Positions 16,054 through 48,172 of a DNA stretch of 64,000 bases are shown piece by piece. Both the position numbers and the translations under genes were made by a program. Source of the stretch: Candidatus Minusculum obligatum (GTDB lineage: Bacteria > Patescibacteriota > Minisyncoccia > Phycocordibacterales > Phycocordibacteraceae). Location: assembly GCA_045401155.1 (NCBI GenBank), contig CP174360.1:513490-577489 (forward strand), given 5' to 3'. The notes beneath the pieces were generated by a model. That model did no database searches. It worked only from the letters and a program-made list of their open reading frames with translations, and was not told the origin of the DNA. Position 1 is the first letter of the stretch. Each line of letters starts with the position of its first letter.

Positions 16054-16407
16054 TTAGAATGTCAGTACGGTATCACGCTCCTTCTCCTCAATCGTAGATG
16101 AACGATCTGTCTCTACAATCTCAAGACGAGCCTCTCCTTCATATTGCCCCGGAGCCTCTTGCGAAAGATCTTCAAAAGAAGCTGCGGCACCCGCAAATCC
16201 AGCCTGGAATGTATTAGCAAGATCAGAAATTGGGTGTGTATTACTCTCCTGCTCTCCCACTGGCTTATATGCAAGTGGCTTTGCAACAACCATAGTCACA
16301 CCCCAGATCATAAAAATAGAAAGGCTAATTGCTGCAGCAGAAGTGTACGCATACTTCTTACGTACATGCTCTGGCTTTTGTCTTATTTCGTGGAGTGTTT
16401 TTCTCAT
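16054..16407 (-). CDS. Hypothetical membrane-anchored protein
   Basis: ORF with one TM helix; 4-nt overlap with the upstream gene; no recognisable family. Confidence 0.35.
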
Positions 16408-17015
16408 ACCTTTAGTACCATAATAGCACCTTTTGCCTCACTTACATCCTTCTTTTTAAGGGTCAGTTTGTCTGTTGGCTTTTCAGCTCCCTCCTTGCAG
16501 AAGGTCTTGAGCGCATCCTTATCCCCCATTCCTTCATAGTGCATTGGAATGATGACATTGGCCTCAAGCTTTGTTGCAAGCTTATGTGCTTTATCTGCAT
16601 CTAGCACACCAGCCCCTCCAATTGGCACAAAAAGAATATCAACTTCATCGAGCGCCTCCCTAGCATCTGCAGGAAGATTCTCATCACTTAGTGCTCCAAG
16701 AAACACAAGTGTCATACCCTCAAGCTCAACCACATACATAGTATTAAGTCCTTCAGGACCTCCATGCTCACTCTTTGTCTGGTATCCACGAATCGCAACA
16801 CCATTCTTCTCATATGCTCCAGGACCTGCGATAACAAAAGAATCATCTTTTGCGCCATTAAAATCAGAATGAATCTTTGAGATAAGGGTAATATCCGCAC
16901 CAAACTTAACTGCAGGAAGCTTTGAATCCTTACTTGGTGGATCAAATACAAGTGTCGTGTCACCAAAACTAACCTTAAAACATTGCCCTCCGTGATGCGT
17001 AATAACCATAGTCAA
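16404..17015 (-). CDS. MBL-fold metallo-hydrolase
   Basis: Metallo-beta-lactamase-like His/Asp spacing (ITHHGGQCF..., IPMHYEG). Confidence 0.55.
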   Translation of the reverse strand: MTMVITHHGGQCFKVSFGDTTLVFDPPSKDSKLPAVKFGADITLISKIHSDFNGAKDDSFVIAGPGAYEKNGVAIRGYQTKSEHGGPEGLNTMYVVELEGMTLVFLGALSDENLPADAREALDEVDILFVPIGGAGVLDADKAHKLATKLEANVIIPMHYEGMGDKDALKTFCKEGAEKPTDKLTLKKKDVSEAKGAIMVLKV

Positions 17016-17149
17016 AACAGTATATCACCTTGTCCAAAATAGACAATATTTCCTTTTGTTAAGCCATATTCTATATATTTTGCAAGACCACATTTTAAAA
17101 CTATTGACAAGTTTTATATTTGTAGTACTATCCTTTCATCCCTAGAGGA

Positions 17150-17745
17150 GAGTTATGGGCTGCTCGTAATCACGAGCCTTGAAAGTGCCGACGCGACTGT
17201 CGGTGGAAAATTCTCTCAAACAATGATCCTTCAAATCCCACGAGGTTTGAACATGACCAATCGTCACATCCGGGGTTCGACCGTCAATGGTCCGGCTTAT
17301 GAAAATACGAGCTCGACCCTGGACATCGATTCCGCGCCGACGTGCGGCTGGCGGTCGGCCTGATCGGCCGGCCAGGCCGGGAGGCAGTCACCGTGTGACG
17401 TGACTCCCGCCTGAGACCAGAGCAACCACCGCGATACAAGCTGCGCGCTTGGGGAGGTACTCATGTTTGTATTTCGACTTATGTCCCCGTACGCTACGGC
17501 GTGCGGGTAACATAGCCCTCTAAAATTTCGGGCAATACCCTGGTCCGGGCAGGACCACTTGAGATCGAGAAAGAGGCGTATAAGATTAATATCGCGTGCT
17601 GTGCACCGATCACTTTATCAGAATACACGCCTACCTAGGGAGCGTACTCCCAAGATCTCTATGACTTGCGGCTGTGGAGCTTGCGCGCAAATGCGCTCTC
17701 TACAGCCCGGTCCCAACCGTCTCTCTTGAGACGGTTTTTCTTTAC
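17150..17745 (+). ncRNA. Unclassified GC-rich structured-RNA candidate (~570-600 nt; strand tentative)
   Basis: 850-nt gap with no ORF of 60 aa or more. An abrupt GC-rich core (17150-17720) in an AT-rich genome, multiple internal hairpins (e.g. GCUCGU-aauc-ACGAGC; GGGAG..GUCAC-cgu-GUGAC..CUCCC), an upstream TTGACA box (17104) and a hairpin+T-run at 17716-17745. No CR-I or CR-V RNase P motifs in canonical order, no tRNA-like end and no clean SRP domain IV were found. Confidence 0.5.
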
Positions 17746-17869
17746 ATTTCACACATTTACCGCTATATTCTCCCTACTTCAGTACGGAGTTTTTTATTAC
17801 CTGTATGTCGGCTAACACTGCACTCTTAACGCAGTACCGAATACACAACTCCCGAACAAGAAAATACAT

Positions 17870-18949
17870 ATGTTTGGAAACAATAAAGAAGTGGAACATC
17901 CACTTCATCATTTGGTTGAAGAGGCTCCAGAACCACCACAAGTTGGTGACACTATTGAGGGAGAGATCGTAGCGATCGATCGCGGACGTGTATACATTGA
18001 CCTGCCACCATTTGGTACAGGAATCATTTACGGACGTGAGTACCTTTCTGCTGCTGACATTCTTCGAAAGAGTAATATTGGAGATTCAATCTCAGCAAAA
18101 GTAGTAGACGCTTCAGGACTTGAGGGATACATCGAGCTATCTCTTAAGGAGGCGCGTCAGGCTGCTATCTGGGGAGAAGCTGAGCAGGCTATTGCAGCTG
18201 AGTCTATCTACACTCTAAACGTAGAGGATGCGAACAAGGGAGGACTTATCCTTCGTTGGCAAGGAATCGATGGATTCCTTCCAGCATCTCAACTTAAGAG
18301 CGAGCACTACCCACGTGTACAAGATGGAGATAAGGATGAGATTCTTGGAGAGCTTAAGAAGCTTATCGGAACACCTCTATCAGTACGTATCATCACTGCT
18401 GATCCTAAGGAAGGAAAACTTATCTTCACTGAGAAGTCTTCTGAAGAGGAGGAGGCAAAGACTGATGCCGTTGATAAGTACACTGTAGGTGATGTTGTAG
18501 AAGGAAAGATCACCGGAGGTGTTGAGTTTGGTCTCTTTGTAGAGATTGAACCAGGGCTTGAGGGACTTGTGCACATTTCAGAGATTGATTGGGCACTTGT
18601 TGAAGATCCTGCAGCACTATACCCAGTTGGAACTGAGGTTAAGGTGAAAGTTATCGATGTGAAGGATGGAAAGGTTTCTCTTTCTATCAAGGCACTTAAG
18701 GAGAATCCTTGGGATGCTGCAGCAAAGAACTACAAGAAGGATCAAGAGGTTACAGGAGTGGTTATTAAGTACAACAAGCATGGTGCACTTATCTCAATTG
18801 AGGAAGGTGTTGCAGGTCTTGTACATGTTTCAGAATTTGAGAGCATGACAGACCTTCGCGAGAAGCTAGAGCTTGGAAAGACATATCCATTCACTATTAC
18901 ACTCTTTGAACCAAAGGAGCAGCGCATGACCCTTGCATTCAAGGGATAA
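17870..18949 (+). CDS. rpsA: 30S ribosomal protein S1, short 4-domain form
   Basis: Four tandem S1/OB RNA-binding repeats (GDTIEGEIV..., GDVVEGKITG..., GTEVKVKVIDV..., VTGVVIKYNKHGALI...); 359 aa. Confidence 0.8.
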   Translation: MFGNNKEVEHPLHHLVEEAPEPPQVGDTIEGEIVAIDRGRVYIDLPPFGTGIIYGREYLSAADILRKSNIGDSISAKVVDASGLEGYIELSLKEARQAAIWGEAEQAIAAESIYTLNVEDANKGGLILRWQGIDGFLPASQLKSEHYPRVQDGDKDEILGELKKLIGTPLSVRIITADPKEGKLIFTEKSSEEEEAKTDAVDKYTVGDVVEGKITGGVEFGLFVEIEPGLEGLVHISEIDWALVEDPAALYPVGTEVKVKVIDVKDGKVSLSIKALKENPWDAAAKNYKKDQEVTGVVIKYNKHGALISIEEGVAGLVHVSEFESMTDLREKLELGKTYPFTITLFEPKEQRMTLAFKG

Positions 18950-19034: not shown

Positions 19035-19169
19035 ATGATACATCCGGAAAAAAGCCGCATCGTTCAAAGCCAGGGGCGACGGCGTCTGGGAAAGTATGTT
19101 CTCGGCGCCGTAATCGCAATATCCATGATCGGCGGACTCATATACGCCTGGCCTTGGCCGGAAATGTGA
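19035..19169 (+). CDS. Small hydrophobic peptide (44 aa, one TM helix)
   Basis: Strong SD (ATTGGAGGAG 7 nt upstream); MIHPEKSRIVQSQGRRRLGKYVLGAVIAISMIGGLIYAWPWPEM; sits in a GC-elevated patch; followed by a perfect hairpin terminator. Confidence 0.4.
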   Translation: MIHPEKSRIVQSQGRRRLGKYVLGAVIAISMIGGLIYAWPWPEM

Positions 19170-19247: not shown

Positions 19248-19358
19248 ATGCCCCGACTTGCACACGAGCACAGAAGCGGCTTCTGGGTAATCGCCACCAT
19301 TGTGGTGGTAGGCCTTATTATTGCCGGCATCATTGTCGTGAAGAACTCTGGCGCCTAG
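19248..19358 (+). CDS. Small hydrophobic peptide (36 aa, one TM helix)
   Basis: Perfect SD GGAAGGAGGTGATCC then ATG; MPRLAHEHRSGFWVIATIVVVGLIIAGIIVVKNSGA; GC-rich codon usage. Overlaps the pth stop on the opposite strand. Confidence 0.4.
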   Translation: MPRLAHEHRSGFWVIATIVVVGLIIAGIIVVKNSGA

Positions 19359-44423: not shown

Positions 44424-44460
44424 AAACACTCGGGTTTTATCCCGAGTGTTTTCATTTTTT
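44424..44460. terminator. Palindromic rho-independent terminator immediately downstream of rnpB
   Basis: aaaacactcggg-ttttat-cccgagtgtttt, a 12-bp hairpin flanked by A-run and T-run. Confidence 0.7.
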
Positions 44461-44778
44461 ATATCGTGGCTATAAGCCGGATTCTGTACCATCTCTGGTG
44501 ACAATCATTTACCTTGCCATTTTGTTACCAAAATGATCTTTGCGGCACTCTCTAGAAACTAGAGTACGGCCTTGCACGCAGATAGGAATTTAGCCGTTTC
44601 ACCCATATGTTGCCATATGATTATCCCACAAGGGGTCCCTCTCATCTCTGATCAGGCGTCACTGCTCGCATCCCTAAGATTGCTCTCGACGGGCGTTACC
44701 CGCTACCCTGCTACTGAAAAATCAGTGCGTGTCCGGACTTTCCTCACATATTGCGCGATTGTCCACCACGACAAGCAC
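44460..44778 (-). ncRNA. rnpB: RNase P RNA (bacterial-type rnpB)
   Basis: Reverse complement contains GAGGAAAGUCCGGAC (CR-I/P4 5' strand), CAGGGUAGCGGGUAACGCCCGUC (P5-P5.1-P7 region, cf. CAGGGUGCCAGGUAACGCCUGG), AUGGGUGAAACGG (CR-II-like) and ACAGAAUCCGGCUUAU (CR-V/P4 3' strand). P1 pairs GUCGUGGU with AGCCACGAU. Length ~320 nt. Confidence 0.85.
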
Positions 44779-47595: not shown

Positions 47596-47607
47596 TTTTA
47601 CGTTATA

Positions 47608-47635
47608 TTGACTTTATATATAAAAATGGTATAAT
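47608..47635 (+). promoter_or_regulatory. Sigma70-like promoter (TTGACT-16-TATAAT)
   Basis: Near-consensus hexamers 45 nt upstream of the 47680 ATG. Confidence 0.55.
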
Positions 47636-47679: not shown

Positions 47680-48105
47680 ATGTTTAAACAAATCACGTTC
47701 ATCGCGGTTATGATGATTCTTTTCGCCATGATCGGCGCCACATATCTGGCGCTCGGCAACTACCTCATCGTTGGGGCAGGTGCCGCGCACGACCCGGCGT
47801 TCGAACGCTTCACGTTCCTCGGCGCCCTATACGTCATAGCGTACTGCGCCAGTATGGGCGTCGGCCTGCTGATCTCGGCTACATTCAAAAAGCGCCGAGA
47901 TCGCGATAACAATCCGGGAGAGGTCGTCATGGCGACCACGATCATCCAAATGGTCATCTTCTTCGTCGGCCTGGCCCTCATGGGCGCCATGGCGCTCGAA
48001 ATGACGGAGCAGTCAATCATCGCCGGCGTCGGCGCCATGATGATCTCGAATGTCCTGGTAGTCCGCTTCTCCTTCGAAGGAGGAAAGCAGATCGCCACGG
48101 CCTAA
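47680..48105 (+). CDS. Hypothetical 4-TM membrane protein encoded in a high-GC patch
   Basis: ORF with SD GAGGAGGG, strongly GC3-rich codons (~57% GC vs ~41% flanks), own promoter and terminator. Confidence 0.55.
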   Translation: MFKQITFIAVMMILFAMIGATYLALGNYLIVGAGAAHDPAFERFTFLGALYVIAYCASMGVGLLISATFKKRRDRDNNPGEVVMATTIIQMVIFFVGLALMGAMALEMTEQSIIAGVGAMMISNVLVVRFSFEGGKQIATA

Positions 48106-48125: not shown

Positions 48126-48172
48126 AAAACCCCCGGCAAGACACCATGTCTTGCCGGGGGTTTCTCATTTTT
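48126..48172. terminator. Bidirectional rho-independent terminator
   Basis: cccccggcaagaca-ccatg-tcttgccggggg, a 14-bp hairpin + TTTCTCATTTTT. Confidence 0.75.

Follow-up and report, generated by a model that had tools for sequence, protein, structure and literature searches.

In a 64,000-nucleotide (nt) stretch of the Candidatus Minusculum obligatum genome (contig CP174360.1; hereafter the window, with all coordinates counted from its first letter), a gap at 17016-17869 is flanked by a metallo-beta-lactamase (MBL)-fold hydrolase gene (16404-17015, - strand) and by rpsA, the gene for ribosomal protein S1 (17870-18949, + strand). The neighbours are gyrA, a gene for a 117-amino-acid (aa) protein, the hydrolase gene, rpsA and pth, and no integrase is among them. 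An earlier note, made from the DNA alone, had put this gap forward as a large structured RNA of unknown class and had stated that neither strand carries an open reading frame (ORF) of 60 aa or more. The longest ORFs overlapping the gap indeed reach only 56 aa (+) and 55 aa (-). The description 'ORF-free' is nevertheless true at the 60-aa threshold only, as short ORFs led by a Shine-Dalgarno (SD) sequence lie at 17253-17363 (36 aa) and 17463-17510 (15 aa). Judged from its sequence, the gap harbours a single self-contained accessory transcription unit on the + strand, predicted to run from ~17138 to 17745 (~610 nt). This unit, hereafter the cassette, is by the same reading a mosaic of a structured leader, a first short ORF (ORF1), a hairpin spacer rich in guanine and cytosine (GC), and a second short ORF (ORF2) with a conserved 3' domain:

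17104-17131, + strand: promoter P1, TTGACA-16-TACTAT, sigma-70 type with 10 of 12 matches; transcription start inferred at ~17138
17138-17252, + strand: structured 5' leader of the 'beta' type, from predicted folds and a shared motif
17253-17363, + strand: ORF1, 36 codons, MTNRHIRGSTVNGPAYENTSSTLDIDSAPTCGWRSA then stop, with the SD GAGG 8 nt upstream
17330-17448, + strand: GC-rich hairpin cluster, GGGAGGCAGUCAC...GUGACUCCC, GC 0.68-0.70, overlapping the end of ORF1 and filling the spacer
17451-17457 (SD GGGGAGG) and 17463-17510 (ORF), + strand: mini-ORF2, MFVFRLMSPYATACG then stop, 15 aa, with 5-nt spacing to the ATG
17449-17707, + strand: conserved structured 3' domain of ~260 nt, from comparative folds
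17486-17507, + strand: 3' domain hairpin CCCGUACGC-UACG-GCGUGCGGG; helices GCCC/GGGC and GGUCC/GGACC also belong to the domain (comparative folds)
17561-17566 and 17654-17659, + strand: 3' domain helix of GAGAUC with GAUCUC, enclosing inner hairpins and followed by a long hairpin at 17670-17707 (comparative folds)
17715-17745, + strand: intrinsic terminator, AACCGTCTC-TCTT-GAGACGGTT and T run, with a 9-bp stem; the T run abuts the rpsA -35 box

The boundaries and the strand of the unit are supported by several features. The TTGACA box that the earlier note had seen at 17104 is part of P1, a sigma-70 promoter, and the hairpin with T run that it had placed at 17716-17745 is the intrinsic terminator at 17715-17745. 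This terminator stops just ahead of the rpsA promoter and is kept, with G-U changes, in all four lineages that have the 3' domain. The + strand of 17135-17750 folds at -246.8 kcal/mol, compared with -205.6 +/- 7.1 kcal/mol for dinucleotide shuffles (z = -5.83), and the minimum-free-energy fold contains the local hairpins named previously. For the - strand, z is -4.72; G-U pairs are conserved on the + strand only, and a search for a promoter-like site on the - strand inside the cassette found none. GC content, only 0.27-0.29 at 17000-17149, climbs to 0.44-0.49 and then to a maximum of 0.68-0.70 within 17300-17449 (0.70 at 17350-17449); it remains at 0.48-0.57 up to ~17750, beyond which it drops to 0.40-0.42 (window mean 0.435). 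The sharp rise and fall described earlier are therefore real, but the GC-rich core covers only ~250 nt (17250-17500) and not the ~570 nt that had been claimed.

We compared the locus with 13 syntenic loci, fetched through the S1 protein and designated here by L numbers. Relatives whose S1 is 84-91% identical retain the end of the hydrolase gene and the promoter and leader of rpsA, as well as P1 in those loci that have a cassette, and the sequence between these conserved flanks differs completely among them. The TTGACAAGTTTTA box of P1 is conserved in L001, L002, L004, L005, L006, L096 and L102, where it precedes quite different cargo, and is missing in L007, whose site is empty, P1 included. 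Several units can be stacked at the site (two in L005, three each in L006 and L103), each equipped with a promoter, a short ORF behind an SD, hairpins and a terminator of its own. In L096 and L102, a gene for a GC-rich secreted protein of 131-142 aa stands behind P1 instead of an RNA cassette; L085 and L088 carry an RNA-like unit together with a 116-aa membrane protein, and L087 a 40-aa ORF unit together with a 243-aa protein. More distant relatives (S1 ~72% identical) mostly have a gap of 150-250 nt, with small ORFs in a few; L083, L056 and L084 have small ORFs upstream of rpsA. On this sequence comparison, the site is a hotspot for accessory GC-rich cargo, and the element in the window is dispensable and strain-variable, which is enough to exclude both a housekeeping RNA and an rpsA leader. 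As regards an integron cassette array, there is no integrase among the neighbours and each unit has its own promoter. L001 and L005 are collinear over the whole unit; they share the 3' part with the window while their leader differs from the window leader, and the cassettes are therefore mosaic.

The secreted protein of L096 (1719-2120) and L102 (1763-2161) has a signal peptide, is rich in Ala, Pro and Asp, and is followed by a long structured 3' untranslated region (UTR).

The part of the cassette that other loci share at this level is the 3' domain alone: from 17449 on, identity is 73-75% with L001 and L005 and 67% with L103. RNAalifold returned 92 pairs for three sequences, 14 of them changed on both sides, and 76 pairs for four sequences, 22 of them changed on both sides, including three in the hairpin at 17486-17507. 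In the three-sequence alignment, 94.5% of cells pair, and the 14 compensatory pairs compare with 0-3 when the partners are slid by one to three columns; none of 500 shuffles reached the observed values. The earlier note had proposed a covariation check on homologous loci, and by these measures covariation is real in the 3' part. The carriers of the domain are the window, L001, L005 (identical in L099 and L100) and L103 only, and neither an nhmmer profile nor a covariance model (R1) run over the loci recovered further copies. On these alignments we regard the 3' domain as a candidate new RNA family, supported by covariation and without a known relative. Within it, GAUCUC at 17654-17659 can pair either with the SD of ORF2 (GGAGGU, 17453-17458) or with GAGAUC at 17561-17566.

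ORF1 begins M-x4-I-R-G-S-T and is, through this N-terminus only, a member of a family M-x(3-5)-[IVC]-R-G-S-[P/T] found in six lineages, all of which have both the SD and the start codon. The relatives read SIRGSP, YVRGSP or SCRGSP, so that R-G-S-P occurs in five of the six lineages (L001, L005, L006, L004 and L103); the window has I-R-G-S-T, with the Thr codon ACC. Across the six, the codons are CGA/CGG/CGC for Arg, GGG/GGT/GGC for Gly and TCT/TCC/TCG for Ser, amounting to at least six changes, every one of them synonymous and confined to the third position, with the first and second positions unchanged. Because the R-G-S codons vary only in this way, ORF1 is probably translated at its N-terminus. 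Past about codon 10 there is no protein conservation, and length varies from 14 to 42 codons. This pattern of conservation fits a regulatory leader peptide, which would act through its nascent N-terminus, better than it fits a functional protein.

The SIRGSP of the relatives contains IRGSP, the core of HAPIRGSP, which is the minimal arrest segment of SecM(Ms); this 8-residue segment of Mannheimia SecM suffices for ribosome arrest (PMC12526060). RxxP cores such as RAGP, RAPP and RGPP define a widespread RAPP-like arrest class, avoided by bacterial proteomes and recurrent in regulatory arrest peptides (PMC12992588). We treat the link between the ORF1 family and the SecM(Ms) arrest motif as a lead from sequence identity. 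A scan of all loci for R-[AGS]-[PSG]-P close to the beginning of short ORFs preceded by an SD returned the ORFs of the cassettes as its only credible cases; a 'MISIRAGP' in L066 was discarded as lying antisense inside a coding gene.

In L005 (1628-1720) and L006 (1544-1660), ORF1 ends after 14 codons with TAA, and similarity to the C-terminal part of the L001 ORF1 runs on in another frame (+1 shift). From the sequences, either this tail would be non-coding or recoding would occur at or after the RGSP site.

ORF2 reads MFVFRLMSPYATACG in the window, MFRFRLMVPYATACG and MFRFRLMFPYVTACG in two further lineages and (GTG)IFIFRLINP in L103, each followed by a stop codon. The SD, the start codon and the motif F-x-F-R-L-[MI]-x-P are kept in all four lineages. 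In L103 the start codon is GTG at the SD spacing, there are synonymous changes TTT>TTC and CGA>CGC, and the ORF ends Pro-UAG. The Pro codon of ORF2 opens the hairpin CCCGUACGC-UACG-GCGUGCGGG (17486-17507), and in L103 three pairs of this hairpin are exchanged compensatorily, giving the UAG right after Pro; since it is compensatory stem changes that create the stop codon, selection there acts on the hairpin and not on the peptide tail. A helix AUUUCGA:UUGAGAU, proposed over the ORF2 codons by the three-sequence fold, was rejected on the ground that TTT>TTC and CGA>CGC break it in L103. Because these changes are synonymous and yet disrupt the proposed helix, translation of ORF2 is favoured, and the sequences give weak evidence that ORF2 may be translated.

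In the leader, GAGAG (~17147-17151) can pair with CUCUC (17213-17217) and enclose hairpins at 17162-17177 and 17188-17205; these are followed by AAUGAUCCUUC, an anti-SD-like stretch (UCCUUC), and by the SD GAGG at 17242-17245. A motif AAAWYCTCTCAMA-TTG-NTC-TTC and the closing helix GUGAGAG/CUCUCAC are common to the window, L004, L085, L088 and the second unit of L103. The closing helix is nearly invariant, so that covariation gives no test of it. Compared with riboswitches, the leader matches no Rfam class; an anti-SD-like UCNUUC occurs in five leaders, and the inner hairpins vary in number and sequence. The GC-rich hairpin cluster is the least conserved part of the cassette, a search for similar sequence in the relatives having found none. 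The earlier note had overlooked that the RNA holds short ORFs with a translated look, that its GC-rich part is the least conserved, and that the unit is a strain-variable hotspot cassette.

Cassettes of relatives, though not that of the window, contain a recurrent motif made of an SD, 5-6 nt, AUGA, a stem-loop and GAGGAUU (L002:3776-3812, L005:2288-2330, L006:1680-1715, L103:1590-1630, L085:2240-2305 and L088:86-150). Its stem covaries (GGGC/GCCC, GGCC/GGCC, GGGCA/UGCCC), and the arrangement fits the pattern of a kink-turn or box C/D motif: UGA, a C-stem, a 3-nt bulge and GA, then U.U and A-U.

Searches for known families covered the 64-kb window with Rfam 15 at the gathering score, positions 16900-18000 at E<=10, and eight related loci. 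At the gathering score the window yielded RNase P and eight tRNAs and the gap itself was empty; at E<=10 there were three chance matches only, and the related loci gave no relevant match. No family thus matches the gap, and the claim of an unknown class survives the Rfam search that the earlier note had suggested. ARAGORN found eight tRNAs and no transfer-messenger RNA (tmRNA) in the window. A divergent tmRNA, one of the candidates then proposed, fails in that ARAGORN reports no tRNA-like domain and no Rfam tmRNA model matches at E<=10; the ORFs here have an SD and AUG, and as a housekeeping gene a tmRNA would not be expected to leave the site empty in the close relative L007 and occupied by unrelated cargo in others. 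OLE, ROOL, GOLLD, HEARO, raiA and the other large RNAs of Rfam likewise have no covariance-model match, even at E<=10 for the OLE-, ROOL- or GOLLD-like RNAs that had been suggested. Of the original proposal, what stands is an independently transcribed and highly structured RNA without an Rfam match; the tmRNA, the OLE/ROOL/GOLLD and the rpsA-leader candidates do not.

Searches beyond Rfam were equally negative. In blastn, the RNA had one 89-nt chance match in a phage collection and none in a plasmid collection; the conserved DNA word GGGAGGTAYTCATGTTT had three chance SD/ATG matches in viral contigs, and TCATGTTTNNNTTTCGACTTATG had one chance match, inside a ribosomal-protein operon, in metagenome contigs. 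Neither Pfam and NCBIfam with eight cassette peptides nor Pfam with all gap ORFs of at least 40 aa on both strands returned anything. A word-indexed search of a 5.8-billion protein set gave no candidate for the ORF1 family, and phmmer with the window ORF1 against 1.84 billion representatives gave only long FG-GAP, Calx-beta and Flg_new repeat proteins, which we judged to be chance matches whose scores sum over near-identical repeats of one 20-residue match at 45-50% identity. A type I toxin-antitoxin system was rejected (the peptides are hydrophilic and the - strand has no promoter-like site inside the cassette), as was a miniature inverted-repeat transposable element (MITE) or other insertion sequence-derived element (17000-17880 has neither terminal inverted repeats nor a target-site duplication, and its two short direct repeats are due to chance). 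No second copy of the cassette was found within the window.

We tentatively favour, at somewhat less than even confidence, reading the cassette as a translation-coupled riboregulator or dual-function RNA. In such a scheme, the multi-hairpin leader could mask the first SD, and ribosomes that load on the two mini-ORFs would be slowed or arrested at the motifs ending in Pro. Paused ribosomes would melt or re-pair adjacent helices, for example by moving GAUCUC between the ORF2 SD and GAGAUC, and this remodelling would decide how the conserved 3' RNA domain, in this scheme the real output, is folded, how stable it is or whether it is released. The sequences themselves show the promoter, the terminator and the strand, the accessory standing of the unit at a hotspot, the coding pattern at the beginning of ORF1, the identity of its family motif to one published for arrest, and the covariation of the 3' domain; that ribosomes stall, that the structure switches and that the 3' domain has a target are the steps that we infer. 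It is doubtful, though conceivable, that the cassettes further constitute a new class of stand-alone, exchangeable arrest riboregulators in Patescibacteria, in which an N-terminal R-G-S-P of the SecM(Ms) type, lacking a localisation signal and a protein gene behind it, and a second, Pro-ending mini-ORF gate how a structured RNA domain, the functional output, folds, persists or is released, the units being swapped from strain to strain between a fixed promoter and rpsA. In terms of what the sequences offer, the feature is real, outside known families, narrowly distributed and dispensable, and it is best described as a putative case of leader- or arrest-peptide-linked RNA regulation and not as a large housekeeping RNA. 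If the riboregulator reading is true, RAPP-like arrest peptides would extend to ultra-small Patescibacteria in a minimal N-terminal format with RNA instead of protein as output; if it is wrong, the cassette would be a lineage-restricted small RNA or small-ORF gene. The case would also show that GC-rich ORF-free gaps in these reduced genomes can be strain-variable mini-gene/RNA cassettes and not housekeeping RNAs, and the hotspot, where the promoter is fixed and the GC-rich cargo behind it is swapped, is relevant to how symbionts with streamlined genomes maintain a flexible gene pool.

Several known systems resemble the cassette in part. Like the RAPP-like arrest peptides (SecM, including the Mannheimia HAPIRGSP, and ApcA, ApdA, ApdP and CruR), ORF1 has a core ([IVC]-R-G-S-P in five of six lineages) preceded by variable residues, the peptide beyond this core is irrelevant, and structured RNA follows the predicted stall site. 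With the leader-peptide attenuators (the erm and cat/cmlA leaders, TnaC) it shares very short SD-led ORFs, a putative stalled ribosome that would re-pair neighbouring hairpins, an SD that alternative pairing can mask, and mini-ORFs (ORF2 and those of L103) that end in Pro followed by a stop codon or a hairpin. Pro just before a stop codon slows termination. Unlike in those attenuators, no resistance or metabolic gene lies downstream of the cassette ORFs, only the structured RNA domain and the terminator. Dual-function small RNAs (sRNAs) such as SgrS/SgrT, RNAIII/hld and SR1/SR1P are similarly promoter-to-terminator units of a few hundred nt that combine a small ORF with structured RNA, whereas in the cassette only the N-terminus of the peptide is conserved, and the unit varies among strains and can be exchanged at a hotspot. 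The resemblance to OLE, ROOL, GOLLD, raiA and HEARO consists in a long, GC-enriched, ORF-poor intergenic region in an AT-rich genome and in covarying helices; the cassette departs from them in matching no covariance model, in its restriction to four lineages, in a GC-rich part that is not conserved, and in ORFs with a translated look.

A number of observations weigh against the riboregulator reading. In the window copy of ORF1, Thr takes the place of the Pro that must occupy the A site for arrest, the essential last Pro of the RAPP-like peptides, and from its sequence this copy may not stall. Known RAPP-type motifs lie near the C-terminus of longer proteins with localisation signals, upstream of a regulated protein gene, whereas in ORF1, a mini-ORF, the motif occupies residues 5-9 and there is no hydrophobic segment (no signal or transmembrane segment that could supply a pulling force), and neither sec/yidC nor any other protein gene follows; structured RNA, a terminator and the independent rpsA promoter do. 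Coding evidence for ORF1 comes from six sequences and three codons, and that for ORF2 from four sequences, in which codons 2-9 have minimal changes of 3, 3 and 4 at positions 1, 2 and 3, without clear periodicity. The hairpins that immediately follow RGS(P) do not exceed shuffled sequence in stability (z from -1.8 to +0.9) and were dropped as evidence. Both pairing options of GAUCUC are invariant, so that covariation gives no test of the switch, and the 3' domain occurs in four lineages only, the viral and metagenome DNA-word scans having found none.

The other explanations can be weighed on the same evidence. In a purely non-coding sRNA, the GGAGG boxes that resemble SDs and the short ORFs would be elements of structure or sites of protein binding and would never be translated, and the RNA would act, through its 3' domain or as a whole, in trans or by binding a protein. 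The very stable fold, the strong covariation of the 3' domain, the unconserved and, in L005 and L006, frame-shifted C-terminus of ORF1, the ability of the second SD to pair with GAUCUC ~200 nt downstream, and the presence of AUGA-stem-GAGGAUU in other cassettes whatever the reading frame would all suit it. We still consider it unlikely, given that the R-G-S codons vary at third positions only, that SD and start codon spacing is kept in all family members, even through the GTG swap in L103 ORF2, and that synonymous L103 changes break the predicted helix AUUUCGA:UUGAGAU. Rather more unlikely is a small-protein gene or two-peptide operon, whose 36-aa and/or 15-aa products would be effectors (toxin, bacteriocin-like, signalling, or precursor of a ribosomally synthesized and post-translationally modified peptide) flanked by long UTRs whose structure would stabilise the mRNA. 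Small SD-led genes with their own promoter and terminator abound in this genome and its relatives (for example, 19035-19169 and 19248-19358), small ORFs also precede rpsA in L083, L056 and L084, and the cassettes are strain-variable and arrayed like accessory peptide genes. Against effectors speak the conservation of only ~10 N-terminal ORF1 codons amid lengths of 14-42 aa and frame shifts, the hydrophilic peptides without signal or transmembrane segment, the lack of a Pfam or NCBIfam match and of anything beyond chance matches in the 5.8-billion and 1.84-billion protein sets, the lack of an adjoining gene for a modifying enzyme or transporter, and a non-coding 3' domain that is better conserved than the peptides.

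That the cassette is non-functional passenger DNA, a decaying, horizontally acquired GC-rich remnant at a recombination hotspot behind a resident promoter, is improbable: at 67-75% identity the 3' domain keeps 94.5% pairing with compensatory changes, and no damage is seen in the promoter, in either SD or start codon, or in the terminator, even if the GC-rich core at 17300-17450 has no homologue, the L007 site is empty, the cargo is heterogeneous and the window motif is degenerate (RGST). We see very little room for a cis-regulator of rpsA, whether a long leader or a conditional terminator that tunes P1 read-through into the S1 gene. The cassette does directly precede rpsA, with which it shares the strand, and the rpsA -35 box is overlapped by the cassette terminator; but every relative has an rpsA promoter and leader of its own, including L007 without cassette and P1, the slot holds unrelated protein genes in L096, L102, L085 and L087, and L006 and L103 stack as many as three units, each with a terminator. 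Finally, length, GC enrichment and hairpin density are similar to those of known large RNAs, and we give next to no credence to a divergent member of these (tmRNA, OLE, ROOL, GOLLD, 6S, signal recognition particle RNA or RNase P), as neither the window nor the eight related loci have a relevant Rfam match at the gathering score or at E<=10 outside the RNase P RNA at 44457-44774, ARAGORN reports no tmRNA, the element is absent from a close relative and its conserved part occurs in four lineages only.

Downstream of the cassette, the rpsA 5' region has features of its own:

17741-17769, + strand: rpsA promoter TTTACA-17-TATATT, outside the cassette
17770-17795, + strand: hairpin CTCCCTAC-TTCA-GTACGGAG and T run, overlapping the promoter; part of the rpsA 5' region
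17811-17838, + strand: conserved rpsA leader GCTAACACTGCACTC..GCAGTACC, GCTAAC(A/C)CTG-hairpin-CAGTACC, preceding the rpsA start at 17870

The promoter and leader are present in every relative, including the empty-site locus L007. The earlier note had listed a 5' leader of rpsA among its candidates for the gap; as an S1 autoregulatory leader the cassette was rejected, its terminator at 17715-17745 preceding the rpsA promoter and L007 having the leader without the cassette. The 5' region at 17770-17869 is conserved even in distant relatives and has no Rfam match, and from its sequence is itself a candidate S1 autoregulatory leader.

Just 3' of rpsA lie two SD-led small genes, at 19035-19169 (44 aa) and 19248-19358 (36 aa), each with one predicted transmembrane helix; the former has its own promoter-like box and terminator. 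Relatives have other small genes in this slot, and the downstream side is thus variable too.

The rnpB gene that the earlier note had reported elsewhere in the window is at 44457-44774. Its class A RNase P RNA scores 106 bits against a gathering score of 100, with 318 nt matched to a 367-position model, and looks like a reduced form.

A second GC-rich island, at 47680-48105 between a LemA-like gene and groEL, has a GC content of up to 0.66, compared with 0.43 for the genome. Its product is a 141-aa multi-pass membrane protein, whose gene has an SD and is preceded by a TTGACT...TATAAT promoter at ~47600-47630 and followed by a strong terminator at ~48130-48165. By composition, this island looks like the same kind of accessory cargo.

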